The notes under the pieces are model-generated. The model made no database searches. It was not told the DNA's origin and was given only the letters and a program-made list of their open reading frames with translations. The translations under genes and the position numbers were made by a program. Below, in pieces: positions 27,605 through 64,000 of a stretch of DNA of 64,000 nt. The first letter of the stretch is position 1; the number at the start of each line of letters is the position of its first letter. This DNA comes from Macrostomum lignano (lineage: Eukaryota), in contig NIVC01001940.1 in the NCBI GenBank assembly GCA_002269645.1, positions 84,895-148,894 of the forward strand. Reading direction: 5' to 3'.

Positions 27605-27744
27605 TACAACCTGCTCCGTTGTCCTGCAAAATATTCAGAATTCAGAGACGAAATGGGATAGGAGCTACCAAGCGGGGTGGGCGATCTCAGCCATTGTGAA
27701 ATTACCTGTTAGATGGTTGGTGACATTCACCTGTACGGATGGGT

Positions 27745-28770: not shown

Positions 28771-29020
28771 ACTACCGACTTGTAAATGTATAATAGATGA
28801 ATCAAGTCGGCAATCAATCCATCAGAGCAAAAACTTTCCCTGACGAATAGCAACACGTTTCGGCAGTTCCTTAATCTACGTAAATCTAATCTGATTATTA
28901 TGACCTCTTTTCTCTTCCTTCCTCTCTCTCTCCTTTTTGCGTTAGGTTTTTGCAATAACTTCCACTTTCTGCTTCAGATAAACAAAACACAAGCCACTCA
29001 AATAAACAAATTGGAGCGTC

Positions 29021-30007: not shown

Positions 30008-30350
30008 GCGATAGAGAGACGACAATTTCTGACAAAAATCGACTCGACAATCTCCACAGCAATATCTCTATACTTCTTCATTAGCTGAGTCGAGCTTTCA
30101 ACATTAAATGTCTGGCACACAAAGCTGTGAAAGAAGCTTATTAGCAGGGGGGCAAACGGCAACTTAAACCGAGGGACTCTGTGACATCCGCCAGCTTTTT
30201 GTTTTTCGAGGAGGCTCTTCCCCCTCCTTTTCGTTCTGGCCTGGCGTGGAAGCGGCTAGCTTCCTCGTCTTGGTCTGCTGGTGGGGGACGGATCCCCCCT
30301 GCTGCTTTTTTGCGGGGCAGGTGGCTGCTAAGTAGTTGGCTGCTGGCTAA

Positions 30351-35437
<5,087 letters not shown>

Positions 35438-37682: not shown

Positions 37683-40600
37683 GGGCGCCAAAATGAGTGC
37701 CTACGGCGCCAAAATGAGTGCCTGCGCTGCCAAAATGAGTGCCTGCGGCGCTAAAATAAATGCCTGCGGCGCCAAAATGAGTGCCTGGCTGTGGCGCCAA
37801 AATGAGTGCGTGCGCTGCCAAAATGAGTGCCTGCGGCGTCAAAATGAGTGCCTGCGGCGCTAAAATAAATGCCTGCGGCGCCAAAATGAGCGACTTGCTG
37901 CGGCGCCAAAATGAGTGCCTGCGGCGCCAAAATGAGTGCCTGGCTGTTGCGCCAAAATGAGTGCTTGCGGCGCCAAAATGAGTGGCTGCGGCGCCAAAAT
38001 GAGTGCCTGCGGCGCTAAAATAAATGCCTGCGGCGCCAAAATGAGTGCCTGGCTGTGGCGCCAAAATGAGTGCGTGCGCTGCCAAAATGAGTGCCTGCGG
38101 CGCTAAAATAAATGCCTGCGGCGCCAAAATGAGCGACTTGCTGCGGCGCCAAAATGAGTGCCTGGCTGTTGCGCCAAAATGAGTGCTTGCGGCGCCAAAA
38201 TGAGTGCCTGCGGCGCCAAAATGAGTGCCTAGCTGCGGCGCCAAAATGAGTGCCTGGCTGCGGCGCCAAAATGAGTGCCTGCGGCGCCAAAATGAGTGCC
38301 TGCGGCGCCAAAATGAGTGCCTGGCTGCGGCGCCAAAATGAGTGCCTGCGGCGCCAAAATGAGTGCCTGCGGCGCCAAAATGAGTGCCTGCGGCGCTAAA
38401 ATGAGTGCCTGCGGCGCTAAAATGAGTGCCTTCGACGCTAAAATGAGTGCCTGCGGCGCCAAAATGATTGCCTTCGACGCCAAAATGAGTGCCTTCGACG
38501 CTAAAATGAGTGCCTGCGGCGCCAAAACGAGTGCCTGCGGCGCCAAAATGAGTGCCTTCGACGCTAAAATGAGTGCCTGCGGCGCCAAAATGAGTGCCTG
38601 CGGCGCCAAAATGAGTGCCTGGCTGTGGCGCCAAAATGAGTGCTTGCGGCGCCAAAATGAGTGCCTGCGGCGCCAAAATGAGTGCCTGCGGCGCCAAAAT
38701 GAGCGCCTGGCTGCGGCGCCAAAATGAGTGCCTGCGGCGCCAAAATGAGCGCCTGGCTGCGGCGCCAAAATGAGTGCCTGCGGCGCCAAAATGAGTGCCT
38801 GGCTGTTGCGCCAAAATGAGTGCTTGCGGCGCCAAAATGAGTGGCTGCGGCGCCAAAATGAGTGCCTGCGGCGCTAAAATAAATGCCTGCGGCGCCAAAA
38901 TGAGTGCCTGGCTGTGGCGCCAAAATGAGTGCGTGCGCTGCCAAAATGAGTGCCTGCGGCGCTAAAATAAATGCCTGCGGCGCCAAAATGAGCGACTTGC
39001 TGCGGCGCCAAAATGAGTGCCTGCGGCGCCAAAATGAGTGCCTGGCTGTTGCGCCAAAATGAGTGCTTGCGGCGCCAAAATGAGTGCCTGCGGCGCCAAA
39101 ATGAGTGCCTGGCTGCGGCGCCAAAATGAGTGCCTGCGGCGCCAAAATGAGTGCCTGCGGTGCCAAAATGAGTGCCTGGCTGCGGCGCCAAAATGAGTGC
39201 CTGCGGCGCCAAAATGAGTGCCTGCGGCGCCAAAATGAGTGCCTGCGGCGCTAAAATGAGTGCCTGCGGCGCTAAAATGAGTGCCTGCGGCGCTAAAATA
39301 AATGCCTGCGGCGCCAAAATGAGTGCCTGGCTGTGGCGCCAAAATGAGTGCCTGGCTGCGCAAAATGAGTGCCTGCGCGCCAAAATGAGTGCCTGCGGCG
39401 CTAAAATAAATGCCTGCGGCGCCAAAATGAGCGACTTGCTGCGGCGCCAAAATGAGTGCCTGCGGCGCCAAAATGAGTGCCTGCGGCGCCAAAATGAGTG
39501 CTTGCGGCGCCAAAATGAGTGCCTGCGGCGCCAAAATGAGTGCCTAGCTGCGGCGCCAAAATGAGTGCCTGGCTGCGGCGCCAAAATGAGTGCCTGCGGC
39601 GCCAAAATGAGTGCCTGCGGCGCCAAAATGAGTGCCTGGCTGCGGCGCCAAAATGAGTGCCTGCGGCGCCAAAATGAGTGCCTGCGGCGCAAAATGAGTG
39701 CCTGCGGCGCCAAAATGAGTGCCTGCGGCGCTAAAATGAGTGCCTGCGGCGCCAAAATGAGCGCTGCGGCGCCAAAATGAGTGCCTGCGGCGCCAAAATG
39801 AGTGCCTGCGGCGCCAAAATGAGTGCCTGCGGCGCCAAAATGAGTGCCTGCGGCGCCAAAATGAGTGCCTGCGGCGCCAAAATGAGTGCCTGCGGCGCCA
39901 AAATGAGTGCCTGGCTGTGCGCCAAAATGAGTGCTGCGGCGCCAAAATGAGTGCCTGCGGCGCCAAAATGAGTGCCTGCGGCGCCAAAATGAGCGCCTGC
40001 TGCGGCGCCAAAATGAGTGCCTGCGGCGCCAAAATGAGTGCCTGGCTGCGGCGCCAAAATGAGTGCCTGCGGCGCCAAAATGAGTGCCTGCGGCGCCAAA
40101 ATGAGTGCCTTGCGGCGCCAAAATGAGTGCCTGCGGCGCCAAAATGAGTGCCTGCGGCGCTAAAATAGTGCCTGCGGCGCCAAAATGAGTGCCTGCGTGC
40201 GCCAAAATGAGTGCGTGCGGCTGCCAAAATGAGTGCCTGCGGCGCTAAAATGAGTGCCTGCGGCGCCAAAATGAGTGCTGCGGCGCCAAAATGAGTGCCT
40301 GCGGCGCCAAAATGAGTGCCTGGCTGTGCGCCAAAATGAGTGCTGCGGCGCCAAAATGAGTGCCTGCGGCGCCAAAATGAGTGCCTGCTGCGCGCCAAAA
40401 TGAGTGCCTGCGGCGCCAAAATGAGTGCCTGCGGCGCCAAAATGAGTGCCTGGCTGGCGCCAAAATGAGTGCCTGCGGCGCCAAAATGAGTGCCTGCGGC
40501 GCCAAAATGAGTGCCTGCGGCGCCAAAATGAGTGCCTGCGGCGCCAAAATGAGTGCCTGCGGCGCCAAAATGAGTGCCTGCGGCGCCAAAATGAGTGCCT

Positions 40601-43600
40601 GCGGCGCCAAAATGAGTGCCTGCGACGCCAAAATGAGTGCCTGCGGCGCCAAAATGAGTGCCTGCGGCGCCAAAATGAGTGCCTTCGACGCTAAAATGAG
40701 TGCCTGCGGCGCCAAAATGATGCCTTCGACGCCAAAATGAGTGCCTTCGACGCTAAAATGAGTGCCTGCGGCGCCAAAACGAGTGCCTGCGGCGCCAAAA
40801 TGACGCTAAAATGAGTGCCTGCGGCGCCAAAATGAGTGCCTGCGGCGCCAAAATGAGTGCCTGCGGCGCCAAAATGAGTGCCTTCGCGCCAAAATGAGTG
40901 CCTGCGGCGCCAAAATGAGTGCCTGCGGCGCCAAAATGAGTGCCTGGCTGGGCGCCAAAATGAGTGCCTGCGGCGCCAAAATGAGTGCCTGCGGCGCCAA
41001 AATGAGTGCCTGCGGCGCCAAAATGAGCGCCTGCTGCGGCGCCAAAATGAGTGCCTGCGGCGCCAAAATGAGTGCCTGCTGCGGCGCCAAAATGAGTGCC
41101 TGCGGCGCCAAAATGAGTGCCTGCGGCGCCAAAATGAGTGCCTGCGGCGCCAAAATGAGTGCTGCGGCGCCAAAATGAGTGCCTGCGGCGCTAAAATAAA
41201 TGCCTGCGGCGCCAAAATGAGTGCCTGCTGTGGCGCCAAAATGAGTGCGTGCGCGCCAAAATGAGTGCCTGCGGCGCTAAAATAAATGCCTGCGGCGCCA
41301 AAATGAGCGCTTGCTGCGGCGCCAAAATGAGTGCCTGCGGCGCCAAAATGAGTGCCTGGCTGTTGCGCCAAAATGAGTGCTTGCGGCGCCAAAATGAGTG
41401 CCTGCGGCGCCAAAATGAGTGCCTAGCTGCGGCGCCAAAATGAGTGCCTGGCTGTGGCGCCAAAATGAGTGCCTGCGGCGCCAAAATGAGTGCCTGCGGC
41501 GCCAAAATGAGTGCCTGGCTGCGGCGCCAAAATGAGTGCCTGCGGCGCTAAAATGAGTGCCTTCGACGCTAAAATGAGTGCCTGCGGCGCCAAAATGATT
41601 GCCTTCGACGCCAAAATGAGTGCCTTCGACGCTAAAATGAGTGCCTGCGGCGCCAAAATGAGTGCCTGCGGCGCCAAAATGAGTGCCTTCGACGCTAAAA
41701 TGAGTGCCTGCGGCGCCAAAATGATGCCTTCGACGCCAAAATGAGTGCCTTCGACGCTAAAATGAGTGCCTGCGGCGCCAAAACGAGTGCCTGCGGCGCC
41801 AAAATGAGTGCCTTCGACGCTAAAATGAGTGCCTGCGGCGCCAAAATGAGTGCCTGCGGCGCCAAAATGAGTGCCTGGCTGTGGCGCCAAAATGAGTGCT
41901 TGCGGCGCCAAAATGAGTGCCTGCTGTGGCGCCAAAATGAGTGCTTGCGGCGCCAAAATGAGTGCTTGCGGCGCCAAAATGAGTGCCTGCGGTGCCAAAA
42001 TGAGTGCCTGGCAACGCCAAAATAAGTGCCTGCGGCGCCAAAATGAGTGCCTGCGGCGCCAAAATGAGTGCCTGGCTGCGGCGCCAAAATGAGTGCCTGC
42101 GGCGCCAAAATGAGTGCCTGCGGCGCCAAAATGAGTGCCTTCGACGCTAAAATGAGTGCCTGCGGCGCCAAAATGATTGCCTTCGACGCCAAAATGAGTG
42201 CCTTCGACGCTAAAATGAGTGCCTGCGGCGCCAAAACGAGTGCCTGCGGCGCCAAAATGAGTGCCTTCGACGCTAAAATGAGTGCCTGCGGCGCCAAAAT
42301 GAGTGCCTGCGGCGCCAAAATGAGTGCCTGGCTGTGGCGCCAAAATGAGTGCTTGCGGCGCCAAAATGAGTGCCTGCGGCGCCAAAATGAGTGCCTGCGG
42401 CGCCAAAATGAGTGCTTGCGGCGCCAAAATGAGTGCCTGCGGTGCCAAAATGAGTGCCTGGCTGTTGCGCCAAAATGAGTGCTGCGGCGCCAAAATGAGT
42501 GCCTGCGGCGCCAAAATGAGTGCCTGGCTGCGGCGCCAAAATGAGTGCCTGCGGCGCCAAAATGAGTGCCTGCGGCGCCAAAATGAGTGCCTGGCTGCGG
42601 CGCCAAAATGAGTGCCTGCGGCGCCAAAATGAGTGCCTGCGGCGCCAAAATGAGTGCCTGGCTGTGGCGCCAAAATGAGTGCCTGGCTGTGGCGCCAAAA
42701 TGAGTGCTTGCGGCGCCAAAATGAGTGCCTGCGGCGCCAAAATGAGTGCCTGGCTGTGGCGCCAAAATGAGTGCCTGGCTGCGGCGCAAAAATGAGTGCC
42801 TGGCTGTGGCGCCAAAATAAGTGCTTGCGGCGCCAAAACGAGTGCCTGGCTGTGGCGCCAAAATGAGTGCTTGCGGCGCCAAAATGAGTGCTTGCGGCGC
42901 CAAAATGAGTGCCTGCGGTGCCAAAATGAGTGCCTGGCAACGCCAAAATGAGTGCCTGCGGTGCCAAAATGAGTGCCTGGCTGCGGCGCCAAAATGAGTG
43001 CCTGGCTGTGGCGCCAAAATGAGTGCCTGGCTGCGGCGCCAAAATGAGTGCCTGCGGCGCCAAAATGAGTGCCTGCGGCGCCAAAATGAGTGCCTGGCTG
43101 CGGCGCCAAAATGAGTGCCTGCGGCGCCAAAATGAGTGCCTGCGGCGCCAAAATGAGTGCCTGCGGCGCTAAAATGAGTGCCTGCGGCGCTAAAATGAGT
43201 GCCTTCGACGCTAAAATTAGTGCCTGCGGCGCCAAAATGATTGCCTTCGACGCTAAAATGAGTGCCTGCGGCGCCAAAATGAGTGCCTGCGGCGCCAAAA
43301 TGAGTGCCTGGCTGTGGCGCCAAAATGAGTGCCTGGCTGCGGCGCCAAAATGAGTGCCTGCGGCGCCAAAATGAGTGCCTGGCTGCGGCGCCAAAATGAG
43401 TGCCTGGCTGTGGCGCCAAAATGAGTGCCTGGCTGCGGCGCCAAAATGAGTGCCTGCGGCGCCAAAATGAGTGCCTGCGGCGCCAAAATGAGTGCCTGCG
43501 GCGCCAAAATGAGTGCCTGGCTGCGGCGCCAAAATGAGTGCCTTCGGCGCCAAAATGAGTGCCTGCGGCGCCAAAATGAGTGCCTGCGGCGCTAAAATGA

Positions 43601-45908
43601 GTGCCTGCGGCGCTAAAATGAGTGCCTTCGACGCTAAAATGAGTGCCTGCGGCGCTAAAATGAGTGCCTTCGACGCTAAAATGAGTGCCTGCGGCGCCAA
43701 AATGAGTGCCTGCGGCGCCAAAATGAGTGCCTGGCTGTGGCGCCAAAATGAGTGCCTGGCTGTGGCGCCAAAATGAGTGCTTGCGGCGCCAAAATGAGTG
43801 CCTGCGGCGCCAAAATGAGTGCCTGCGGCGCCAAAATGAGCGCCTGGCTGCGGCGCCAAAATGAGTGCCTGCGGCGCCAAAATGAGCGCCTGGCTGCGGC
43901 GCCAAAATGAGTGCCTGCGGCGCCAAAATGAGTGCCTGCGGCGCCAAAATGAGTGCCTGCGGCGCCAAAATGAGTGCCTGGCTGTGGCGCCAAAATGAGT
44001 GCCTGGCTGCGGCGCAAAAATGAGTGCCTGGCTGTGGCGCCAAAATGAGTGCTTGCGGCGCCAAAACGAGTGCCTGCTGTGGCGCCAAAATGAGTGCTTG
44101 CGGCGCCAAAATGAGTGCTTGCGGCGCCAAAATGAGTGCCTGCGGTGCCAAAATGAGTGCCTGGCAACGCCAAAATGAGTGCCTGCGGCGCCAAAATGAG
44201 TGCCTGCGGCGCCAAAATGAGTGCCTGGCTGTGGCGCCAAAATGAGTGCCTGGCTGCGGCGCCAAAATGAGTGCCTGCGGCGCCAAAATGAGTGCCTGCG
44301 GCGCCAAAATGAGTGCCTGGCTGCGGCGCCAAAATGAGTGCCTGCGGCGCCAAAATGAGTGCCTGCGGCGCCAAAATGAGTGCCTGCGGCGCCAAAATGA
44401 GTGCCTGGCTGTGGCGCCAAAATGAGTGCCTGCGGCGCCAAAATGAGTGCCTGCGGCGCCAAAATGAGTGCCTGCGGCGCCAAAATGAGTGCCTGGCTGC
44501 GGCGCCAAAATGAGTGCCTGCGGCGCCAAAATGAGTGCCTGCGGCGCCAAAATGAGTGCCTGCGGCGCTAAAATGAGTGCCTGCGGCGCTAAAATGAGTG
44601 CCTTCGACGCTAAAATGAGTGCCTGCGGTGCCAAAATGATTGCCTTCGACGCCAAAATGAGTGCCTTCGACGCTAAAATGAGTGCCTGCGGCGCCAAAAC
44701 GAGTGCCTGCGGCGCCAAAATGAGTGCCTTCGACGCTAAAATGAGTGCCTGCGGCGCCAAAATGAGTGCCTGCGGCGCCAAAATGAGTGCCTGGCTGTGG
44801 CGCCAAAATGAGTGCTTGCGGCGCCAAAATGAGTGCCTGCGGCGCCAAAATGAGTGCCTGCGGCGCCAAAATGAGCGCCTGGCTGCGGCGCCAAAATGAG
44901 TGCCTGCGGCGCCAAAATGAGCGCCTGGCTGCGGCGCCAAAATGAGTGCCTGCGGCGCCAAAACGAGTGCCTGCGGCGCCAAAATGAGTGCCTGGCTGTT
45001 GCGCCAAAATGAGTGCCTGGCTGCGGCGCAAAAATGAGTGCCTGGCTGTGGCGCCAAAATGAGTGCCTGCGGCGCCAAAATGAGTGCCTGGCTGTGGCGC
45101 CAAAATGAGTGCCTGGCTGCGGCGCCAAAATGAGTGCCTGCGGCGCCAAAATGAGTGCCTGCGGCGCCAAAATGAGTGCCTGCGGCGCCAAAATGAGTGC
45201 CTGGCTGTGGCGCCAAAATGAGTGCCTGCGGCGCCAAAATGAGTGCCTGCGGCGCCAAAATGAGTGCCTGCGGCGCCAAAATGAGTGCCTGGCTGCGGCG
45301 CCAAAATGAGTGCCTGCGGCGCCAAAATGAGTGCCTGCGGCGCCAAAATGAGTGCCTGCGGCGCTAAAATGAGTGCCTGCGGCGCTAAAATGAGTGCCTT
45401 CGACGCTAAAATGAGTGCCTGCGGCGCCAAAATGATTGCCTTCGACGCCAAAATGAGTGCCTTCGACGCTAAAATGAGTGCCTGCGGCGCCAAAACGAGT
45501 GCCTGCGGCGCCAAAATGAGTGCCTTCGACGCTAAAACGAGTGCCTGCGGCGCCAAAATGAGTGCCTGCGGCGCCAAAATGAGTGCCTGGCTGTGGCGCC
45601 AAAATGAGTGCTTGCGGCGCCAAAATGAGTGCCTGCGGCGCCAAAATGAGTGCCTGCGGCGCCAAAATGAGTGCCTGGCTGTTGCGCCAAAATGAGTGCC
45701 TGGCTGCGGCGTAAAATGAGTGCCTGGCTGTGGCGCCAAAATGAGTGCTTGCGGCGCCAAAATGAGTGCCTGGCTGTGGCGCCAAAATGAGTGCTTGCGG
45801 CGCCAAAATGAGTGCTTGCGGCGCCAAAATGAGTGCCTGCGGTGCCAAAATGAGTGCCTGGCAACGCCAAAATGAGTGCCTGCGGCGCAAAAATGAGTGC
45901 CTGCGGCG
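37683..45908. repeat. 8.2-kb satellite, 21-bp monomer GGCGCCAAAATGAGTGCCTGC with 25-bp and GACGCT variants
   Basis: Several hundred monomers; recurring variant blocks. Confidence 0.97.
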
Positions 45909-47949
45909 TTGCACTGACCACAGCCACTTCAAGAGGTGCTGCTGCTGGTGCGAGGACAGGCGCGCACCCAACGCTTCGTTTTTCCTGCCTTGATGGCTGA
46001 CGCCTTATTTCCAAGACATTTTTGGAGAGAGAATATTTTTATCTTATACCGGTATTCCCTATTCAGTGCAGCTAAATAAGAAAAAGCTGCAATATGATAC
46101 AAGCATTCGCGCATTAGGACGCCAGCAAGGGAGAGAAACAGAGGTAATCTAACCCAGGATTGAGTGCAAGTTACATTAATGTCTGACTCAATCAGTCTCA
46201 TAGCCTAAATAAGGATTTAGTCGAGCAAGAAAAATGGTAATGAAATTTCTTGATGAGTGTAAAATACACAGCAATTATATAGTCAGTAGTATTCTCCTTA
46301 ATGTCCTTAATCGATATAAATCATATGTTTAGGAGGATAAAAACTTCATTCATGTCATTCTTTATACCTCCCAGGTCTTAATTAGTTTAAGCGTTGACCC
46401 CTCCCTGGAATGTCATCCGCTAAAGAACCTCTAAGTCTGCTATAGGATCTTCTATTTTTTTCTGACTCATTCCCATTTTTCGAAGAAATAAATTGGTTGT
46501 AGTCTCGAAAACACAGCCCTGAGGGAATAGCTCGTACTGTGTGATTATTTTTTGTTATATTTTCAGATCGTTGTTAAAATTATACAGTTTTCTTTCCAAT
46601 ACATCTATTAGCCTACTAGCAGCAGTAGCCATATTAGAAAGTGATGAACTTTTAATAATTAGGTGTTGCTCTAAAAATAATTTTTCCATTTCAATAAAGA
46701 ATCCAATGACTAACATCAGAGACACCTGCAACTTTTGAGGCGATGCCGGAATGCATTCAGGTCCAGTCAACATGACAACATGACTTTGATAGCTCAAACC
46801 AGAGTATCACTACTCGAATAGAATATAGAGAGAATAGAGAGAATTTAATTGAAACTTTATTCGTACAATCAACGGGCACATTTATCTAGTCAAGTGTGAT
46901 AGTCAAGTGTGATATAAGGCATGATAGGGTGTTATTCCAAAGAGGATACAGGATTTAAGAGCTTTTTAAATTCAGTTGAAACCTATTTAGGATGCTTCAC
47001 CTTGAGGATAAAACATAAAAATTTAATTACGCATATACTCAGTGCGTGAATGTAAAAGATTTTTGGATTAGCAAAGCACTTTTACGCACAGAGACGCTGC
47101 TGACGTTGCGTGCTCACAAAGCCATGACTTTGAAGCTTTCTATAGAGATGGGACAAAAACACCCTTGGCTTGAGGTTCCCTGCAGATGAAAGCGTTTCCC
47201 CCACAAGCAGCTGCACCCATACCTAAGCCTGTCCTGACCTAAAAACCATGGTACCTACCTAGCTTTTCTGTCAGTAAACTGAAGGCTGTACTAGCAAAAG
47301 CTTTAACGACTACTGCACTATACTACATTATATTGGCAATTTCTAAGACGCCTTTAAGCCAAGGATTTGCTCAGAAAACAAGTCAGCTGGGTTGCCTAAT
47401 TAGTAATAAGCAAGTCCCACAGGCAAAAAGGACAACTACAAGACTGTGAAGTCTGGGTTTGCGTGCCGAAAAGGTGGCCTCTGTATGGCTCTGTTTACTC
47501 AATATATTTATTAGTCAATATTGTGGGGTGGGGTGCAGCGATGCGCGATTGGTCGAGAATTGGTAAACAAGTTTAGGCGAGAGAATGAGTCATGAATAAT
47601 AATGTGGGGCAGAGAGTGCAGCGCACGGCCTACGCCCTACAAAGACCATTATTGCCTCCCACAGATACCGCAGTGCGAGACATTGCCCCAGAAATTCGAC
47701 AATATTTGACAATATTACAGGTACTGAGACTTTTGCCTCGCCTGGTCAAGCGTTTTATGCGGTGCCTGCTGATGTACAATCATTATTAAAAACTGGGATG
47801 AAAGTAAAGATCTCTAAGGACTGCAGAAAAGTAGCTATTCGACAATATAATCGTTCATGAACCAACAAACTTGAATTAGCACATGAACCTACTGAGTACA
47901 TGCAAGTCTGAGCGCCTGATCTAGAGTGAACTTTCAACTTTCAAGTCCG

Positions 47950-51657: not shown

Positions 51658-52110
51658 AGTAGTAGGGCGAATTATGATACTGCCGCACTAGCACTGGCGA
51701 GATAGGCGGCAATGCAAATGTATAGGGAAAAATACACTGCGGAGATATGAGCCCTATCTCTGTGCATTGGGGACGGCTAAGCACTGCAGAGATATGAGCT
51801 CTATCTCTGTGCATTGGGGACGGCTAAGCACTGCAGAGATATGAGCTCTATCTCTGTGCATTGGGGACGGCTAAGCACTGCAGAGATATGAGCTCTATCT
51901 CTGTGCATTGGGGACGGCTAAGCACTGCAGAGATATGAGCTCTATCTCTGTGCATTGGGGACGGCTAAGCACTGCGGAGATAGAGGCGATTCATGATACT
52001 GCCGCACTAGCGCTGGCGAGATAGGCGGCAAAAAGGATATAGGAAAAATACACTGCGGAGAGGATCCTATCTCTGTGCATTGGGAACGGCTAAACATTGC
52101 AGAGATAAGA
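51658..52110. repeat. Putative Maverick left terminal region: AGTAGT end, five 47-bp tandem units and a 319-bp-spaced direct repeat
   Basis: Units start at 51789, 51836 and onward; TGATACTGCCGCACTAGC at 51675 and 51994; the partner TIR is outside the window. Confidence 0.7.
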
Positions 52111-52432
52111 GGGGTGGCCAATCTCTGTGCTCTGTGTTAGGGTAAGGTTATAAAGTTTTACAACTGCACAGAGGACGGCTGGTGTTGCTTACCTGGATAA
52201 GGGGACGGGGGGATACACTAATTACAGCCAGTGGCCTCTATAACGGTAAAGTAATTATTACCTGAGCATGGCTGGATGTTCATATACGATATGATAAGGA
52301 GAGGGCATGCATGTACAAATTACTATATAAGCAGCCACGCAAGTACAAATAAACAAATAGACAAAAACAAATTGTATAAAAGGATTTTTAAAAACCTTAC
52401 TACTTCTAAAAAACAACTCTTTCTCTTTCAAA

Positions 52433-53851
52433 ATGAAAACTTTTAAAAGTTGTCATAGAGACCTCTATGAGGTCTGTATAAGCTGCGAAGTGTGCCTGCT
52501 TGGAGGCGTGTCCCCAAGACACCACGAGAATGAGAACTGTCTGGTCTCATGCTGGTTGGCATGCGACCAGTGCGGCACCGTCGAAGCTCTGCAGGAGGGA
52601 AAAATTCCAGCATATCATCGAGGACACAAGATCGTCAGCGATGACAAGAAAAAGCAAGAAAGTAACCGCTGGAAAGTAATCCGCGCCATCAAAAAGAGCA
52701 ACGAGAGAGAAAAGAAGAGCCAGCAGAAAAAGGGAGCCAGCAGGAGTCTGCTATCAGCTCACTTGAGTCAAGTAATTGACTCTACATTGAAGAGGATGAG
52801 GCCAAGCGGGTCTTCAGCAGCTGCAGAATTTGAAGTTGAGCTGTCTGCTGGAGTCGAGGCTGCTGGAGTCGAGGCTGCTGGAGTCGAGGCCGCTGGAGTC
52901 GAGGCTGCTGGAGTCGAGGCTGCTGGAGTCGAGGCTGCTGGAGTCGAGGCCGCTGGAGTCGAGGCTGCTGGAGTCGAGGCTGCTGGAGTCGAGGCTGCTG
53001 CTGTCATAAACTTCATAGAGGAAGATGTCCTGGATCAGTTCCTCAGGGAATTCAACGCTGGTCAGCAGCAGCAGCAGCAGCAACCTGTCTCTTCGGTTCC
53101 GGTGATTGCTGGAAAACAACTTCATCTAATTGAAGACGACCACGAAATGGAAATCCTAGAAGAGGAGGGCAGCGACAATGAGTCGCATAATGCAATTGTG
53201 CCACCTGCAGCTCCAGCCGCCCCAGCTGCTCTGGCCGCCCCAGCTGCTCTGGCCGCCCCAGCTGCTCTGGCCGCCCCAGCTGCTCTGGCCGCCCCAGCTG
53301 CTCTGGCCGCCCCAGCTGCTCCAGCCGCCCCAGCTGCTCTGGCCGCCCCAGCTGCTCCAGCCGCCCCAGCTGCTCTGGCCGCCCCAGCTGCTCTGGCCGC
53401 CCCAGCTGCTCTGTCCGCCCCAGCTGCTCTGTCCGCCCCAGCTGCTCTGGCCGCCCCAGCTGCTCTGGCCGCCCCAGCTGCTCTGGCCGCCCCAGCTGCT
53501 CCAGCCGCCCCAGCTGCTCTGGCCGCCCCAGCTGCTCTGGCCGCCCCAGCTGCTCTGGCCGCCCCAGCTGCTCTGGCCGCCCCAGCTGCTCTGGCTGCCC
53601 CAGCTGCTCCAGCCGCCCCAGCTGCTCTGGCCGCCCCAGCTGCTCCAGCCGCCCCAGCTGCTCCAGCCGCCCCAGCTGCTCTGGCTGCCCCAGCTGCTCC
53701 AGCCGCCCCAGCTGCAGCCTCTACAATTCCAGCTTCTCAATCCGAAACTCCACCCGTGCCAGCTGGAGTTGCCTTCTTTCTGCCTCCTGTCGGCGGGGCT
53801 GGGTACGAGGTAACGATTTTCGAAAATCGTATTAGAATTGTGCCGCTGTGA
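52433..53851 (+). CDS. Maverick accessory ORF, 472 aa: Cys-rich N-terminus, basic region, (AAGVE)n and (APAAL)n repeats
   Basis: ATG in AAAATG context, TATATAA at about 52324, unique N- and C-terminal sequence flanking in-frame repeats. Confidence 0.6.
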   Translation: MKTFKSCHRDLYEVCISCEVCLLGGVSPRHHENENCLVSCWLACDQCGTVEALQEGKIPAYHRGHKIVSDDKKKQESNRWKVIRAIKKSNEREKKSQQKKGASRSLLSAHLSQVIDSTLKRMRPSGSSAAAEFEVELSAGVEAAGVEAAGVEAAGVEAAGVEAAGVEAAGVEAAGVEAAGVEAAGVEAAAVINFIEEDVLDQFLREFNAGQQQQQQQPVSSVPVIAGKQLHLIEDDHEMEILEEEGSDNESHNAIVPPAAPAAPAALAAPAALAAPAALAAPAALAAPAALAAPAAPAAPAALAAPAAPAAPAALAAPAALAAPAALSAPAALSAPAALAAPAALAAPAALAAPAAPAAPAALAAPAALAAPAALAAPAALAAPAALAAPAAPAAPAALAAPAAPAAPAAPAAPAALAAPAAPAAPAAASTIPASQSETPPVPAGVAFFLPPVGGAGYEVTIFENRIRIVPL

Positions 53852-55364: not shown

Positions 55365-58300
55365 GTTCAACAGTCAGCTTCAGCAGAGTTGCCCAAGCCT
55401 ATGATCAATCACTGGAAATACTGAGGCTCAGATCGAGTCACCCAGACACGCTTCCGTCAGAATTTTTTGTCCAAGCTGGAGACAAAATTATTGAGGCAGT
55501 TCAGCAAAGAATTTCAAGACATCATTACAAAGTTCAGCTAAAGGCGAATATTCGAATGGTCCGAATAAGAGATGGGGAGATGCTTGCCGAAGAGGACAGA
55601 TGGATAAGCTGTAAAATGCAGGCCCTAGACCTAGGTGGTGAAGCAGGCCGTTTAAACAACTGGTTGATTGAGCAGGAGCAGGAGTTGGAGAGGATCTGTA
55701 GTATGATTAATACGAACGGCAGTGGCTGGACAATTAAACAAATTAATTTTCTAGACATCAACCTTGCCAGGTACAATCCAATTCGATTTCGCCAGGGCAG
55801 AGCCGTTAGATTCAATCTTCCTGCCAGTTTGAAGAACAAAAAGGCTGTTATCAATCCACCGAGCACAGGCAAAGACTGTTTCCTGTACGCCTGTCTCGCT
55901 GCACTGCACAGCGCCGATCCGAAAGTTCAGAAATCGCCCAACAGAATATCCTCTTACGATGAATGGTTGCGTGAGCTGGACTTTGCAGAAATCTCCATGC
56001 CAGTGAGTGTCGCTGATATCGATCGCGTCGAGTCTAACAATCCAGGAATTTGCATTTCTGCGTTCTCTTGGCAGCAGGGCAGTGTGACTCTTCTCCGTCG
56101 CCGCAAGCATGAGTCAGATGACCGAAGACACCTCATGCTTTTGCTAGTTAAAGACAGCTACGGATCGGAGCACTGGTGTGCAATTACTAATTTTGACAGG
56201 TTAATGAACAGTCGTAATGGTCCCGCCATGAGGAAGTGGTGCACGAAATGTTTAACATCATTTTATAGCAACGAGAGGCTTCAAGAGCACAGGAACGAAT
56301 GCAGCATTACTGCAGAAAATCCTGTCAAAGAAACGCTTCCAGTTCCAGGACAGAATGAAATAAAGTTCCGAAACTGTCAAAACACTGTCAGTCCACCATT
56401 CGTTGCCTATGCCGACCTGGAAGCCATTTTGCGAGCGAACACAGACCCTGCTAACCTGATCTCAAAGCATGAACCATGTGCAGCAGCTTTTCTTGCAGTG
56501 CCTCGTGAAGGCATGACAGGACCTCCGCTTAGGCCAGAAGGAGACATGTACAAGGTCTTTTGCAATGCGGACCCTGATGAGTGTATCCTTGGTTTTCTCA
56601 AATCTCTTGAAAGCCTGGCTCAGGATATATTTCACTGGAACCAGAAGCATAGCCACCAGCCGGCTGACCGATCATCCGCGACCGTCATGGATGATTTCAA
56701 TTCTGCTGAGGTATGTCACTACTGCAAGAAGAACTTTAAAAGTTCTACAGATAAACATTTTGACCACGATCATTTAAATGGACAGTACAAAGGTGCAGCA
56801 TGTCAAGAATGCAACCTGCGAGCACAGCTCCGACGCCGGTTTCTGCCCCTGGTTTTTCACAACTTAGGCGGCTACGACCTTCATCTTCTACTTTCCACTG
56901 CGCTTGGGAGCATGAAAAATTGGAAACTTAGTGTTGTTCCGCAATCATCCGAGCGATACTTGTCACTAAGGGCGGAATTCCCTGTTGCAAGTTACGTAAA
57001 GAACGGAAAAGTTGTGCCAATCATGTTTACAATTCAGTTCATCGACTCGCTCTGCTTTTTGAAGGGAAGTTTGTCCAATTTGTTTGCTAATCTTCCCGAA
57101 GCTGAATGCAAGCTGACAATGCAAATGCTTGAGTCAAGACCACATCTTTCAAGAGAGCTACTTCGAAAAAAGGGATTTTCCCATATGATTACCTCACAGG
57201 ATTTGAGATTCTCGAGCAGTCGGTTTTGCCGCCTAAAGATGCTTTTTTTAATCGACTTTCCGATCGGGGAATTTCCGACGACGACTACAATAGAGCAAGA
57301 GCGGCATGGGCGGCATTTCAATGCAAAAGTTTGAAGGATTATATGCTCGCCTATCTTGAAATGGATGTAAGGCAGCTGGCTGACATTTTCGAGACATTCC
57401 GACAGGCCAGTCTGAAAGAGGACGGATTGGATCCGGTACACTACTTTACTACTCCTGGTTTGTCTTACGACTCAGCTCTAAAGTCGACTGGAGTGGTTCT
57501 AGAGCAGCTGACTGATGCTGACATGTATCATCTGTTTGAGAAGGGAATACGAGGAGGCATGTCCTTCATTAATGTGCATTGCGTCAAAGGTAATAATCCT
57601 AGCTTGCCAGGTTATGATGATCAGCAAGAGAGTGTAAGCCTCATGCCGATCGATATGAACAACTTGTATGGCTTTGCCCTGTCGCTTCCGCTTCCATGCA
57701 GGGAATTCAGGTGGGTACCGGAACAGGAAATCCAGTTCTGGGACTCCAATCGGTTTCTGTCACTCAATCCAGAAGCCGAGATCGCCTACCTTGTTCAACT
57801 CGATCTAGAATACCCAGCTGAGATTCACGATTCGACTCAGGAGTTACCGTTTGCACCTGAAAAATCAAAACCACAGCCAGATCAATTCTCGCCGTACATG
57901 GCCGAACTATGGAAAGAGATTGCTGAACAGCGAACTGGCAATGCTGAAGCTAAGTTTCAAGCAACGGAGAAGCTTCTACTCACCTGTACCGACAAGGATT
58001 CTTACGTAGTTCACAGCACCGTTTTAAGATTTTACCTGCAACACGGAATGCGGATCAAGTGCGTCAAAAAAATGATTTCGTTCAAGCAGGAAAATATTTT
58101 CGCGCCGTACATTGCCAGCAACAATGAAAAAAGAGCTTTGGCAACTTCCGAGTTTGCTAAGGATTTTTACAAATTGAAAAACAATTCTCTCTTTGGAAAA
58201 ACTATGGAGAACGTTCGAAAAAGATGCGATGTTCGAATTTGCACTAACCAGACTCAAGCAGAAACTTGCGCCTCTCGACCAAACTGTGCCGCATTCTCGA

Positions 58301-59013
58301 TTATCAATGAGTCGTTGAGCATTTTTCAGCTCAAAAAAGATAAAGTCACGCTTGACAAGGCCATTTTCGTTGGCCAGGCAGTTCTCGATCTCTCTAAGAT
58401 GGCCATGTACAGCCTACTATATGACAGGCTCCGACCGCTGTTCTGTCATTCAGACGGTTCCAGAGACATGATGCTTTGCGGAGGTGATACTGACTCATTT
58501 TTTCTAGCTTTCAAGAATCATGATTTAACATCGGAGGTAATCCCGAAGCTTAGAGAGGAAAAAATACTTGACACATCCAACTATTCTCGAGACCATCCGC
58601 ATTTCTCTGAAGAGTTAAAAGGAAAGCTGGGCTGCGTTAAAGATGAATCTGCTGGTGGAATTTACCAGGAGTGGATTCTTTTGCGTCCAAAACTTTATTC
58701 GTTTCTCCCTGCCGAGAATTCGAGTGCAAAGATCAAGAAAACTGCCAAAGGCGTGAAGCAGTCAGTAGTAAGACAGCAAATTTCGCATGCGAACTATGTC
58801 GACGCGTTCGAGTCCAAGCAAGAGCAGATGGTTGCCATGACAGCGATTGTTTCCAAGAAACACGAAATCTTCACGTCGGTCATGGAGAAAAGAAGCCTAT
58901 CGGTGTGGGAGGATAAGCGAGTGTGGCTTAGCAGTAATCGAAGCCTGCCCTACGGACACTATGCGCTGACGCCCGCATCCCACGATCAGCTGAAGCGCAT
59001 CCGACTGGTCTAG
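55365..59013 (+). CDS. polB: Protein-primed family B DNA polymerase, with a 1-nt frame break at 57166-57172
   Basis: Frame open from 55364; C2H2-like finger, EndoVII-like CHYC...DHDH...CQECN, YADLE, FHNLGGYD, YLEMDV, DMNNLYG, KLKNNSLFGK, GDTDS, LRPKLYS, KGV. Confidence 0.93.
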
Positions 59014-59595
59014 TGCGGGTGTTTAACAGACTGTTTAGTACTTTTTCTTGCTTTTAGAGTTGTTTAAATTGCCAAATTCTGTTTTAAATGTAGTGACTTG
59101 CATGTAGTAACTTTTACAAATTTGTATGCTTGGCTAATTGCGCTAGATTTAGCTGTCAATTTGTTTTTGCGGCGTGAAATATTGATATCAATTTAAGTTT
59201 TACTTTTTATAAAGCTGTGTGGCAAGTGCGCTCATACAATATTAATTCATTTTTGTTTGCTTTGTGTACTACTTGTTTAAAATGTGTTTTTGGTTTTTAT
59301 CTGACACAAATTGTTCCTGTAAATTCAATCAGCGTTTTAATCATATTTTCTCTATCACTTTTCTATTTCTCTTCTCTCGGTGCACATCGTTTGTTATAAC
59401 GATGGTAGTATTGTTTACTTTCGGATTTGATATGCGTTTTGCGATACTTTTGGTGATGGGCTAAATACGTTTTTGAAGTGTTCCATAGCTGTCTGCCTGG
59501 GAAAATGAATGTAAAGAATACCAAGTTTATCCTTTTATTCACTTTTCACTAATCATTGAAATATTTGCGGCAAATTGCTTGACTTGACTTTATTT

Positions 59596-60168
59596 TTATT
59601 CAATGGAAAGAACTACATTGAGTAGACGCATGCTATCGGTATGCAACTGATTCAAGGACCGAGCTCCACTGAGAACAAAAGAGCCGCTGTGAAAAAGCAG
59701 ACATTTACAAAAGTTTAAATTGAAAATTAAAGCAGAAAAGGATTCTGGTTCATATTCGGCGTTTGGGATAATTGATTTTAACATTAATAAGGAAAGTGCG
59801 GAATGAACTGGGAGCTGTCCATGAGCAGTAATAGTTTTAATTCGAACACAAATTGTTTGATGAGGCAGCAGTTGAGCCGGCACTCTCCGATGCAGCATAG
59901 CCACGAAGCGACGGGCAGCCCTTTTGGCGTCTGCGTGGGTCTTGGCACCGCAGATGCTCAGTTGCCCAGTAGGGTAGAGTAGGAGAGTCACTCTGGGAAT
60001 CCGCATCCGCTTGATGAGCACCCGGGGCCAGACGGGCCGGTAGATCACATGAGCCATGCTGAGAGCCAGTTCCCGTAGAGGCAGCTGAGCGCCCCTGCCA
60101 CCATCCAGTCTCAGATCTACTCCGCCAACCAGATTGGTCACTCTTAGGGCTGTAGCTGGTGGGCTCAT
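59596..60168 (-). CDS. Divergent TATA-binding-protein-like protein (two TBP repeats)
   Basis: Repeat 1 NLVG...YRPVWP..LIKRMRIPRVTLLLYPTGQLSICGAKT..DAKRAAR; repeat 2 YEPESFSALIF...CLLFHSGSFVLSGARS; first ATG at 60168 (track start 60207 is TTG). Confidence 0.8.
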   Translation of the reverse strand: MSPPATALRVTNLVGGVDLRLDGGRGAQLPLRELALSMAHVIYRPVWPRVLIKRMRIPRVTLLLYPTGQLSICGAKTHADAKRAARRFVAMLHRRVPAQLLPHQTICVRIKTITAHGQLPVHSALSLLMLKSIIPNAEYEPESFSALIFNLNFCKCLLFHSGSFVLSGARSLNQLHTDSMRLLNVVLSIE

Positions 60169-60688
60169 TTCGATCGTCAACTTCTTCACCAAATCTGCTT
60201 CTGCCAACTTTACTGCTCGTGTGCCACGGACACTGCTCGCTTCTTAAGTTGATGCAGAACTTTGGCTTAAGCCAACTGTAGTGCAGCAACGAATTTCTCA
60301 CTGCACAGCCAGTATCTGAATCTTCAGTCGAGGGTGCTCCCAAATCTTCTAGGTTATAAACCTGTCTTCCAAGCAGCTCAGTCAGAAAAATCGACTTCCT
60401 TTCCCCATTTGACCAGATCGGACCACTGGCAATGCTCAGAATGTCTTCCGCCAGTTCCATGTACGGACGGGTTCCATCATTCCACTTAAACTGGTGCAGA
60501 CTCTTAGATAGCTGTCTGTAGTAAACTCGCATGTCAGGTGAGACTCTCTCCCATGGATACGGAGGTGCGTACACATGGTGAGCAATGTGGTAGCTCCCCG
60601 CTCTGATTTGAACAACTGCCAACTCCTTCACAACAAATTTTTTGCTTGTGCTGTTGCACGGGAATCCTTGGAAGTCAATGTAGTTCAT
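59837..60688 (-). CDS. Maverick-type DEDD-like exonuclease-fold protein; true stop may be near 60210
   Basis: YIDFQGF...FVVKELAV...PPYPW...WNDG..PY...VYNLEDLG...CAVRNS pattern recalled from Maverick accessory ORFs. Confidence 0.6.
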   Translation of the reverse strand: MNYIDFQGFPCNSTSKKFVVKELAVVQIRAGSYHIAHHVYAPPYPWERVSPDMRVYYRQLSKSLHQFKWNDGTRPYMELAEDILSIASGPIWSNGERKSIFLTELLGRQVYNLEDLGAPSTEDSDTGCAVRNSLLHYSWLKPKFCINLRSEQCPWHTSSKVGRSRFGEEVDDRNEPTSYSPKSDQSGWRSRSETGWWQGRSAASTGTGSQHGSCDLPARLAPGAHQADADSQSDSPTLPYWATEHLRCQDPRRRQKGCPSLRGYAASESAGSTAASSNNLCSN

Positions 60689-60717: not shown

Positions 60718-61410
60718 TCAGTCCACCTTCTTATATACTTTTCTGGCAGGCAATTTCAGCCAGGCTGTGTTGCTCCCGTACCCCTTGACTAGACTCTCCT
60801 GTTCTTTCTCCAGTTCACCCCCTCTGCTGGTTGCCATTTTCTTCTTAACTGATTTACCAACAGCGGAAAGCGGAACATTAAGCTTTTTCTGCTGCAGAAA
60901 ATCGATGAACTCGTTCCACCCAACTGGTTCACGCTCACATGGCGAATCCCTCACTGTGTGCTGAATCAAGTCCAGTATGTTTGAGGAAGGGATTGACGTG
61001 CCTGCGATTTCCACCTCCCCGTTTTCACAAACTCGAATCAGCTCTGGATTGGTGGACAGGATCGTCCACAGACTGCGAGCCCTGGTTTTGAATTTCTGTG
61101 GCACCGACTTGCTGATCTTCTCTTCCCAGGTGCTTATCTGGGGTGTCTCTGTTTTCATCAACTTGGCTTCAGTATTGCGTGCTCCTTCTTTTCCAGCGTG
61201 CTTGCGCTTGGCCAGCAAACTTTGCATTGCACTTTGGTACATGGCGGTTTTCACATCTTCTGGACAATCCTCGGCATACAAGATGTCATCGCATTTCTTC
61301 TGAGCCTGCTTCAAGTCAGCTTCAGTGGTAGTCTCATTTGGCTTCAAATTCTGCATCAACATCTCATACTCTGCTTTAGGAATCAGAACCATTTCTGAAA
61401 ATTTGTTCAT
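60718..61410 (-). CDS. Conserved Maverick hypothetical protein, 230 aa
   Basis: EMVLIP...GEVEIAGTSIPSSNILDLI...PVGWNEF...VPLSAVG pattern and syntenic position. Confidence 0.65.
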   Translation of the reverse strand: MNKFSEMVLIPKAEYEMLMQNLKPNETTTEADLKQAQKKCDDILYAEDCPEDVKTAMYQSAMQSLLAKRKHAGKEGARNTEAKLMKTETPQISTWEEKISKSVPQKFKTRARSLWTILSTNPELIRVCENGEVEIAGTSIPSSNILDLIQHTVRDSPCEREPVGWNEFIDFLQQKKLNVPLSAVGKSVKKKMATSRGGELEKEQESLVKGYGSNTAWLKLPARKVYKKVD

Positions 61411-61744
61411 TTTGCTTCTTCTTCTTTACCAGCTTAAGCAGAATCGGGAGTATTTTGATGAAGCCAGCCTTCAACAAGTCTGTCTTTCTTCTTTTGTGAG
61501 TAATTTTTCGAATTATCTCTTTTGACTTTGCAAGAACAGCTTTTTCATCGAGCGAAAACGATAGATTGTTTTGTAAGAGATTATGGCAGGCCTCGACAAG
61601 AAAATAACGCACTTCTTTTGGACAATTTTTTATCAACAGCCGCTTGAAGCGCACGGTATATTTAGGTGACGCAAGAACCGCAAAAAGACTTGCATATGAA
61701 TCAAGCACTTCCATTGCGATGAAAACAATAGCTGATAAAAACAA
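61376..61744 (-). CDS. Small basic Maverick protein (possible core/DNA-binding protein); likely start at M11
   Basis: LIKNCPKE...EACHNLL...KEIIRKI...KAGFIKILPILL; Lys/Arg-rich. Confidence 0.55.
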   Translation of the reverse strand: MFLSAIVFIAMEVLDSYASLFAVLASPKYTVRFKRLLIKNCPKEVRYFLVEACHNLLQNNLSFSLDEKAVLAKSKEIIRKITHKRRKTDLLKAGFIKILPILLKLVKKKKQNEQIFRNGSDS

Positions 61745-61755
61745 GCTTCACTTTC

Positions 61756-62435
61756 TTAAGCAAATACAAGATGGGGTCGCTGGTTGGGCAGAATTCTGGC
61801 CCGCACTCGCAGCTCATCGGGAGTTGATGGGTGAAAGTCTAGGAACAGGTAGCTCCCCTGCCCTGCGCGGTCACGTGCTTGAACACTGACAGCAGAAAGC
61901 CGGGCTTCTCTGTAAAGCACTGCCTGCCCAGTGCTGCAATCTGCAGCTGGTCTCTGGGGTTTTTCAAGATAGCTAAATACATTACATTCAAGCTCATTGT
62001 TCGCGACTCTTTTCCCTTGAAAAATATATTCTGAGTCAGCATCACCAAAAAGCACGGCAAGTGATGTGCGATTCCTGTGAAAAAATTTCGCATTGAAGCA
62101 GAGTTTGAAGTTTCCTCTATTAAGTCATCGAAAACAACCAGGTCATTGGGCCTAAGTGCTGCCTCGATGTTGGTGGGAAATCCCTGGCGCAGCTGCACAC
62201 CTAGGCTGTTCAGTTCTGCATGGCCTGCCTGTGAGATCCCATAGTACCACAGAACTCTGCCAGGCTTCACATCAAACATGACGTCTCTGTACTGGATCAG
62301 GTGTTTGACAAAGGTTGTTTTTCCTGCATTGGTGGGCCCGCAGACAATCATGCAGCTTCCCTGCCTGAGGCGGATATCGTAGCAAACTTGCTTTTCTCCC
62401 ATGTTTAATGCATAAATATTAGAAATCACGGACAT
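61756..62435 (-). CDS. FtsK/A32-type genome packaging ATPase; C-terminus in a second frame after about 61855
   Basis: Walker A GPTNAGKT, Walker B LVVFDD, AHH...LTQN, RTMSLN; tail SYLFLDFHPSTPDELRVRARILP in ORF 61756-62055. Confidence 0.9.
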
Positions 62436-62938
62436 CTTTTTCTTAAGTTGGCTTCAAACCTCTGTAAGATTCTATCATTCAAATGATTTTTCTCATTAGC
62501 ATGCAAATGCTTCAAAATCCCCTCAAATGACCGATTGAACAGAAACTTTTGATAAGCAAAATAGATGCAAAACATTCCGCATTTATTAGAGTTAGCACAT
62601 TGAACTCTGTTTATATTGCTTCGGAGCCAAAAGCCAGTTGTTTTAATCTCTCGAAACAAATTATAAACCAAAGATAAAATTTCAGGTTCCCAGCCGAGGG
62701 AGTTGAACAACTCAATGCGATTTCCTTGCCCAACATAGCACACCACCCAGTGACCAAATGAGCCATTGTGCTGAAGTAGGACAAAAACAAACTTGTTTTC
62801 AAAGGAAATTGATGATCTAAATTTTCTTTTTACATTCAAGGGCAGAGAATTTTTATAGCGCAAATGTAAAGTAACTATGAGAAATTTTTGGTAAGGCAAA
62901 AATTTTCTGGCGAGATTAAGTAGTTGAATTGCATCCAT
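62426..62938 (-). CDS. Adenain-like cysteine protease (capsid maturation)
   Basis: GHWV, ELFNSLG, VQ...SNKCGMFCIYF; ATG at 62938 lies 1 nt after the capsid stop codon. Confidence 0.85.
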   Translation of the reverse strand: MDAIQLLNLARKFLPYQKFLIVTLHLRYKNSLPLNVKRKFRSSISFENKFVFVLLQHNGSFGHWVVCYVGQGNRIELFNSLGWEPEILSLVYNLFREIKTTGFWLRSNINRVQCANSNKCGMFCIYFAYQKFLFNRSFEGILKHLHANEKNHLNDRILQRFEANLRKRCP

Positions 62939-62939
62939 G

Positions 62940-64000
62940 TCAATTAAGAGAATAGTCCAGCAAAAGCTCTCGGTGCTTGGTGACCTCAATCAGCGAGTCA
63001 TACAGGCACATAGCAATCAGGGACACCGCTTCATTCAGAGCCTGTTGGAAGCGAATCTCCAGCCGCAGGTTGCCCTCCTTCTGTCCGTACCACAGAGCCG
63101 CTCCCTCGGGTGTGAGATCGAATGCAAACACCGTGCTGTTGTTGGAGAAGAGCTGGTAGGGGATCCACGGACCGAGTTTGTGTGGCTTGCAGATTGACAG
63201 CTTTTCAGGTAGTGCAAGTATTCTCTTACGAAAGGAATTGTTTTCAGGTGTGAAGGCGCCGTGGCACACGGTTTCCCCACCTTTCTTTAGAGCCAATCGG
63301 CTAAGGTTGAAGCTCTGGAACTGTAACGGGCTCGCGTGATGATGACCGTTGAATGCTCGGTGGCTCACGAAGGCCAGCATGATGAACTTCGGCAATTTTC
63401 CATGAGTGAATCCTTCAATGTTTTTTGACTGAATACCCTGGGGTAGGATGAAGTTCTGCATTTCAGTTCGCTCGATGGGATACAGTGCATTTTGGTTTGT
63501 CAGCCCCTGCTCATGGGCCAGGCTGATGTGGGGCATCACTTTGACTCGGCGAAGATGCAGAATGCTGTGAGAGATTTCCATTCGGTATGCCGCGTTGTTT
63601 GCATTCGGGGTTCTGATGGCAAAGGCCCCATCGCTGGGGACCAGTTTGATGTGCAGGTGCAGATTGCTTAGCAGAAACACTCGGCACTGGAAAACATCGC
63701 TGAAGAGCGGCCCGCATACTCCATCCATTGGGATTCCCTGTGGCTCTCCGTGTGCTCTTCAGCTTGCCGAGTTCGGCTCCAGGAAGCCAGCAGGGTAAAG
63801 TTTTAGTTGCTGGGCATCGGATGAGCTCATTAGTGCTTTGAAGTACGCATGGTAGGGATAGAGCTGTCTCCACCAGACACCACTCGCTGGTTAATGCTCA
63901 CAATTACATCTGAGAAGGCTGTAGACAGAACAAAATTTTCTGGGTGCACGTCACTGTCTCTGCGCTCGGTGATGATGCCATCTCCATCTCGAACATCCTC
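62940..64000 (-). CDS. Major capsid protein (PY-like), 5' end outside the window, interrupted by frameshifts at about 63710-63865
   Basis: VHPENFVLSTAFSDVIVSIN, LYPYHAYF, GPLFSDVFQ, LHLRRVK, LPKFIMLAFV...AFNG, STVFAFDLT, GNLRLEIRF. Confidence 0.85.

Follow-up and report, generated by a model that had tools for sequence, protein, structure and literature searches.

A Maverick of Macrostomum lignano, a virus-like element of ~17 kb with many copies in that genome, encodes its own TATA-binding protein (TBP), and a non-standard TATA-like word, CTTAAGAA, stands ahead of the majority of the element's genes for capsid, packaging, and integration. The sequences suggest that this TBP is probably a late-promoter specificity factor that would use host TFIIB and RNA polymerase II (Pol II), much as the herpesvirus TATT-binding factor does. 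The locus contributes three TBP/word pairs and TBP-less controls in one genome, together with residue changes that predict specificity. The finding bears on how Mavericks time and drive their virion genes, and on the long-standing question of a real viral cycle. A TBP and an 8-bp word can be tested with one small protein and short oligonucleotides (TATAAAAG, CTTAAGAA, TATAAGAA, and TATAAGCA).

The element and its TBP gene

By every feature examined, the carrier is a Maverick. The window (the whole 64,000-nucleotide stretch of DNA analysed) ends at the contig end, where the capsid gene is cut, and the right terminal inverted repeat (TIR) and integrase of this copy lie beyond it; the right arm was completed from sister copies, which add ORF123, a minor capsid gene, an rve integrase with a chromodomain, and a PC4-like gene. 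The Maverick/Polinton gene set is present: a protein-primed family-B DNA polymerase (PolB), the rve integrase (in sister copies), an ATPase, a protease, and a capsid gene, the last named by its position and its likeness among copies, with no Pfam match. Complete sister copies are ~16.5-16.8 kb long (n = 2). The TIRs start with AG and are flanked by a 6-bp target duplication, exact in three of four two-ended copies and with one mismatch in the fourth. Table 1 lists the features of this copy, the end coordinate of the left TIR being transferred from a complete sister copy. On the minus strand, TBP is followed by ORF283, ORF230, ORF112, ATPase, protease, and capsid, and it faces PolB, the convergent arrangement inside the Maverick that the initial annotation had described. 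We infer from its position, which matches that of the adintovirus 'Oncoid' genes, that ORF472 is a candidate early regulator.

Table 1. Features of the Maverick copy, in window coordinates
Feature	Position	Strand	Details
Left terminal inverted repeat	51658..52033	.	begins AGTAGTAG; contains 47-bp tandem repeats; 376-bp inverted match in complete sister copy
Second TATA-like box, TATAAAG	52149-52155		upstream of the canonical 52324 box
Canonical TATATAAG box	52324..52331	+	upstream of ORF472
ORF472	52433..53851	+	Cys/His-rich N-terminus; body acidic, Pro/Ala-rich
Protein-primed family-B DNA polymerase	55556..59013	+	split over two frames here, with the break at about 57.2-57.3 kb
Two AATAAA signals	59589..59600	-	at TBP stop codon
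Maverick TBP	59596..60168	-	190 aa, two lobes
ORF283	59837..60688	-	conserved 160-aa domain, D-x-Q/E-G start, plus tail
CTTAAGAA	60241..60248	-	80 nt ahead of TBP ATG, within upstream ORF
ORF230	60718..61410	-	conserved element gene, no Pfam match
TATAAGAA	60728..60735	-	47 nt ahead of ORF283 ATG
ORF112	61376..61714	-	conserved basic helical gene
CTTAAGAA	61753..61760	-	46 nt ahead of ORF112 ATG
Packaging ATPase	61839..62402	-	start common to relatives is the second ATG; extra ATG at 62435
Adenain-like protease (Peptidase_C5)	62426..62938	-	
CTTAAGAA	62440..62447	-	45 nt ahead of ATPase ATG at 62402
Major capsid gene, 3' part	62940..64000	-	cut by contig end

A PC4-like transcription coactivator domain (PF02229, just below the cut-off) occurs in the same elements (L025:7884-8627, L032:1130-1855, and L038:3538-4176), and in families A and B its gene has a canonical TATA box upstream. 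Outside the Maverick (window 21460-35437 and 38000-46000) are LINE-type ORFs (22023-23928 and 30696-35437), a Tc1/mariner transposase (26358-27419), an intronless GPCR gene (29021-30007), and a long GC-rich tandem array.

Two stretches of the 190 amino acid protein match the Pfam TBP family (PF00352; E = 7.9e-25), the 35 distinct PDB sequences matched with E up to 0.01 are all TBPs or TBP fusions, and the ESM Atlas returned TBP clusters. The AlphaFold model, whose input alignment included host TBP and TRF2, has a pLDDT of 92.3 and a pTM of 0.82. Foldseek ranks 1-44 are TBPs (TM 0.78-0.83 among the 39 matches listed), and the fit of the model to solved TBPs (TM ~0.8) is far closer than its fit to viral TBP-like models. 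Pfam, AlphaFold, and Foldseek together show two tandem TBP repeats forming one saddle, and the complete two-repeat fold claimed in the initial annotation was thus confirmed. The protein is a core only, without an N-terminal extension, and its nearest database protein, at 99%, is from Macrostomum lignano. The extent originally given to the gene, 59596..60207, was in the right frame but took in 13 codons upstream of the ATG; from ATG to stop, it runs from 59596 to 60168 on the minus strand. That the gene is intronless is likewise true but undiscriminating: the host TBP and TRF2 cores (L056 and L057) are also single open frames without introns, and lack of introns is therefore no argument.

A search of the host's own genome with the TBP scored 150 candidates and yielded 152 matches, of which 25 are identical and the subfamilies lie at ~89, 80, 77, 75, and 38%; the gene position, after ORF283, is constant in all A/B/C copies examined. 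Both lobes have dN/dS ratios of mostly 0.1-0.25 (saturation affects several of the pairs compared for repeat 2), indicating purifying selection on an element gene. Identity of the Maverick TBP is 27% to host TBP, in line with the divergence first noted, and 26% to host TRF2. Element TBPs hold their own side of the tree with support of 99/97 (96/94 with family H added, the branches being long), and a clade uniting element TBPs with host TBP is rejected (AU p = 1.42e-5). Word-indexed protein searches recovered only close or family-C/H-like relatives (5, 15, and 1 proteins), the range outside the host being under-sampled, and IMG/VR scans with the TBP, the TBP alignment, and the capsid and ATPase alignments gave no match.

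TBP copies are recombinant within the gene at about codons 100-120 (window about 59810-59870). The subfamilies are mosaics, in which a likeness of 93-100% over repeat 1 and the capsid arm goes with synonymous-site saturation in repeat 2 and ~50% identity in PolB; in one copy, repeat 1 groups with family A and PolB with family B. Pairwise identities of PolB and of TBP repeat 2 showed no significant correlation (Spearman 0.20, p = 0.23), and strict co-segregation is therefore unsupported.

For 329 nt, the tail of ORF283 shares its DNA with TBP repeat 1 but is read in a different frame, and ORF283 remains open for 110 codons inside the TBP gene (window 59837-60168). Within the overlap, none of 15 at-risk codons ends in T, vs. 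26 of 74 elsewhere (p = 0.002); a like overlap is found in family C (p = 0.09), and the tail sequence is unconserved. The tail was rejected as a conserved protein, its dN/dS of >1 meaning that it is shaped by the TBP frame, and fusion of ORF283 to TBP by frameshifting was judged unlikely because family B has a stop directly before the TBP ATG. ESM Atlas matches for ORF283 were unnamed arthropod-rich clusters and a weak Maelstrom lead (0.87); that the ORF283 domain might be nuclease-like is a lead only.

A word positioned ahead of right-arm genes

In unbiased counting, CTTAAGAA was the top 8-mer of families A and B, occurring 5-6 times per module against 0.13-0.18 expected. At one locus (L076), it was present six times vs. 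0.56 expected, a count reached in 0 of 200 shuffles, and all eight sense-strand matches to [ACT][AT]TAAGAA lie 12-148 nt before a gene start, with none on the other strand. Over the whole window, the word is not enriched (3 vs. 2.74 expected); its three sites there all read on the minus strand, one each ahead of TBP, ORF112, and ATPase, and there are none in the 51,600 host bases of the window or on the sense strand of seven left arms. Counted together with its variants TTTAAGAA and TATAAGAA, the word (consensus YTTAAGAA) is found upstream of 8 of the 11 right-arm genes, mostly by 37-80 nt; these are the integrase, minor capsid, ORF123 (at -149), major capsid (at -110), ATPase, ORF112, ORF283, and TBP genes. 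No clear word precedes the protease gene or ORF230, and the PC4-like gene and ORF472 have the canonical TATATAA instead. Both TATA-like boxes of the left arm that the initial annotation had pointed out, at 52149 and at 52324 (TATATAAG), are present, and they are likely to be ordinary early promoters of the host-TBP type.

The word is kept inside the coding sequence of overlapped genes, in differing frames. Three word sites read TTA-AGA, TTA accounting for only 17 of 226 Leu codons, and distances from the word to the start common to relatives are at least 35 nt, the sites in this distance and codon analysis having been picked after the word had been seen. Stray ATGs occur at +9 to +21 from the word, one with a stop after two codons; that these are passed over while the used starts lie at least 35 nt away fits a transcription start near +30. 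No initiator consensus was found 25-35 nt after the word. Family C provides an exception to the spacing, with CTTAAGAA 12 nt before the minor-capsid ATG and a second site at -95. The footprint of a TBP is 8 bp, the same width as the word, which is usable for annotating gene starts in these elements.

Other TBP lineages, TBP-less families, and contact residues

Two more TBP lineages have words of their own. The family C TBP is 37% identical, and its word is YATAAGAA. The family H TBP is ~20% identical, with 72 genome matches and four of six proteins over the Pfam cut-off; Foldseek matches it to TBP at E = 9e-8, the lobes in its model being misplaced (TM 0.43, pTM 0.67). The family H word, TATAAGCA (consensus TATAAGYA), was seen 17 times vs. 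0.5 expected in five modules. TBP loci of family H are L143:1101-1715 (G000:C1704), L174, L163, L166, L169, and L177; the gene lies upstream of a nucleoside kinase and PolB, it begins at an apparent splice acceptor, and in one subfamily it is fused to the kinase (L169:6940-8319).

As controls, 20 loci of other polinton families were found by PF03175 plus PF21738. A sensitive TBP profile matched one of the 20, which is a family H locus; by our assignment, 15 of the remainder belong to three TBP-less families, and four are PolB or integrase fragments. The positioned word is absent from the 15 TBP-less loci, CTTAAGAA occurring 10 times in the 380,672 bases of all 20 control loci. Since the lineages are related and TBP and word are co-inherited, the three with both and the three without are not independent tests, and the TBP-less families differ in the whole virion module too, which counts against the TBP/word link. 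TBP-less loci (L098-L101, L112-L113, and L126-L127) carry a PF21738 capsid, Pox_A32, a PLA2-like gene, and adenovirus pX. In the TBP-less loci that were read in detail, many gene starts consist of a T-rich run plus TAAAA(A)ATG (six of eight long ORFs in L113, none in four A/B/C loci). Such starts resemble poxvirus or virophage late promoters, and these families may depend on a helper virus.

Residues were compared with those of host TBP in yeast TBP numbering. Relative to host TBP, N69, T112, L114, F190, L205, F207, and V213 are kept, and the changes are F116 to Tyr, S117 to Pro, K120 to Gln, V122 to Ser, T124 to Cys, Q158 to Lys, N159 to Thr, V161 to Thr, and P191 to Ser. The intercalating aromatics had initially been read as W/Y in repeat 1 and F/F in repeat 2. 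Three of these hold, i.e., Y65, which replaces the repeat-1 L5.1 Phe, and the retained F144 and F159, but W47 aligns with the Arg preceding the first repeat-1 Phe (it is His in family C), and that Phe (F99) aligns with P48 in three alignments. Proline in place of F99 is common to families C and H and a metagenomic relative. The canonical set of four intercalating Phe and two central Asn is thus incomplete: F190, F207, and N69 are kept, whereas F116 is Tyr, F99 is Pro, and N159 is Thr. The Thr at the second Asn, correctly suspected at the outset, is invariant in 17 of 17 rows. Common to all three TBP lineages are Pro for F99, Tyr-Pro for F116-S117, Ser/Thr for V122 and N159, and Thr for V161. 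With F99 and N159 gone, the protein could be a poor DNA binder, like TRF2, which counts against a specificity factor.

On the other face, the TFIIB loop E140-P141-E142 is invariant in 17 of 17 rows and is Asp/Glu in family H; the counterparts of E140 and E142 (human E284/E286) are the TFIIB-binding glutamates, according to Ravarani et al. (PMC7221094). The basic helix-2 patch is mostly kept in family A/B. As for a TFIIB of the element's own, PF00382 gives 15 genome matches on seven contigs, none multicopy, and hence no multicopy element TFIIB, although a very diverged one could escape this profile. The DNA face thus carries a fixed set of alterations, and the TFIIB face is like that of the host protein.

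Position 6 of the TATA register is G in all three words (YTTAAGAA, YATAAGAA, and TATAAGYA). In solved TBP-DNA complexes, V122 reportedly faces base pair 6, where G would clash; we infer that its replacement by Ser/Thr in strand S5 of repeat 1 would make room for this G. The match of G6 words with the V122 replacement across three TBP lineages is suggestive.

Proposed role, alternatives, and known systems

If the Maverick TBP is a late-promoter specificity factor, host TBP would start early-type genes (ORF472 and the PC4-like gene) at canonical TATATAA boxes. The element TBP would then bind YTTAAGAA before the capsid, packaging, and integrase genes, hold host TFIIB via the conserved Glu-Pro-Glu loop, and recruit Pol II, with transcription starting ~30 nt downstream of the word; in this way it would switch on the late block, its own gene included. 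Redirection of host Pol II, already raised in the initial annotation, remains the best-supported idea, but the left-arm boxes proposed there were the wrong ones: the word linked to the TBP is YWTAAGAA before right-arm genes. That the TBP gene itself lies behind the word leaves the source of the first TBP as a point against a late factor, and the TATAAG words of families C and H, one base from canonical, may be usable by host TBP. Sequence contigs from four runs of uncertain type give even coverage of 10 kb of a sister copy, lack splice joints, and are silent on expression. More broadly, and with somewhat more doubt than belief, we suggest that beta-type animal Mavericks have long had a TBP lineage of their own, which turned the TATA box into a new code (G at 6, with lineage-specific flanks) and so into a one-protein early-to-late switch on host Pol II for a 17-kb integrated virus, TBP-half swaps and three coexisting TBP/word pairs then being a natural test set for orthogonal promoter codes. 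If true, no smaller viral system for promoter specificity on Pol II would be known; it would parallel late transcription in herpesviruses, and its TBPs would form a natural altered-specificity series in which TBP reading of a G-containing box could be tested.

Host TBP/TFIID might instead read the word as a weak TATA box, the element TBP being a general booster that escapes host regulators. Wild-type TBP has been crystallised with single T(-30) and G(-26) variants (from PDB titles), TATAAGAA and TATAAGCA are close to TATAAA, and family A/B retains most of the basic helix-2 patch; nevertheless, CTTAAGAA departs from TATAAAAA at three positions, is under selection at synonymous sites, and is unlike the canonical TATATAA boxes that the element itself has, and the DNA-contact changes are fixed across lineages, all of which makes this reading unlikely. 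We regard as quite unlikely, too, that the word is a TAAG-type initiator for another polymerase, from a helper nudivirus- or baculovirus-like virus, with the TBP doing something else. All three words do contain (A/T)TAAG, the baculovirus late start motif, the TAAAA(A)ATG starts of TBP-less families imply that helper-type promoters exist in this genome, and one family-C site is only 12 nt from its ATG. Conservation, however, covers 8 bp, the word rarely comes closer than about 35 nt to a start, transcripts begun at the word would include the out-of-frame ATGs at +9 to +21, and the word tracks TBP presence.

The same association bears on a decoy, also raised in the initial annotation: a protein that would tie up host TFIIB or TAFs, with no productive binding to DNA, and so damp host transcription or defence. 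Invariant TFIIB-loop glutamates alongside changed F99, N159, and V161 are what a decoy might look like, but lineages with only 20-37% identity have kept the altered DNA face, and the matching word, found only where the TBP gene is present, would be left unexplained; we consider a decoy very unlikely. A recent retrocopy of host TBP, absent from other copies of the element, had been named at the outset as one outcome that would overturn the initial annotation. The intronless host TBP core would make capture easy, yet with 27% identity to host TBP, a joint clade rejected at AU p = 1.4e-5, dN/dS well below 1, and 152 matches with the same gene position in all A/B/C copies examined, recent capture as a non-functional copy is scarcely credible.

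With cellular TBP and TRF2/TBPL1 (PF00352), the Maverick TBP shares the two-lobe saddle (TM 0.82), N69, L114, F190, F207, and the Glu-Pro-Glu TFIIB loop; it differs from cellular TBP in being 27% identical, in its altered DNA-contact residues, in having no N-terminal extension, and in residing in a mobile element. NCLDV TBPs also have a viral TBP fold (Foldseek BFVD matches, 7-20% identity), and NCLDV TBP-TFIIB systems come with a viral polymerase; unlike in NCLDV, no TFIIB or RNA polymerase was found in the element. In most viral TBPs the TFIIB glutamates are lost, and the virus supplies a TFIIB itself (NCLDV, e.g., ASFV B263R; PMC7221094), whereas the Maverick TBP keeps these glutamates and is structurally nearer cellular TBP. 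Beta- and gammaherpesviruses pair a vTBP (KSHV ORF24, EBV BcRF1) with TATT late promoters on host Pol II, early promoters keeping TATA. ORF24, a large mimic with several domains, makes its own contact with the Pol II CTD through an N-terminal domain and works only with five further viral proteins, in a six-protein complex (both points from PMC7498053). A variant box before late genes and canonical TATA before early genes would be common to both systems, early and late here being presumed timings; the Maverick TBP differs as a bare 190 amino acid protein that has kept its TFIIB loop intact and is encoded by an element of 17 kb. It is not a member of the herpesvirus vTBP system, and the likeness, by analogy, would be only in how it works.

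Adintoviruses share PolB, an rve integrase with chromodomain, ATPase, adenain, capsid, inverted repeats, and 6-bp duplications (Starrett et al. 2021, PMC8502044, as far as its accessible portion goes). The label 'TBP' appears in adintovirus figure legends there and in the preprint (10.1101/697771, likewise accessible in part); the accessible portion of the paper holds nothing more on a TBP gene, no promoter word, and no Macrostomum, and that of its supplement gave no match. A literature search that covered few subscription journals found no paper on a Maverick TBP beyond this legend label.

Among 17 metagenome contigs picked by their ATPase, three have a TBP beside it (L197:362-859, L195:740-1354, and L192). 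One metagenome TBP, of 166 amino acids, has the Pro and Ser/Thr signature and is followed by an ORF283-like start, and the TBP of one short contig has Arg at the V122 position. Another is near-canonical and groups with cellular TBPs, which, from its sequence, suggests a second capture.
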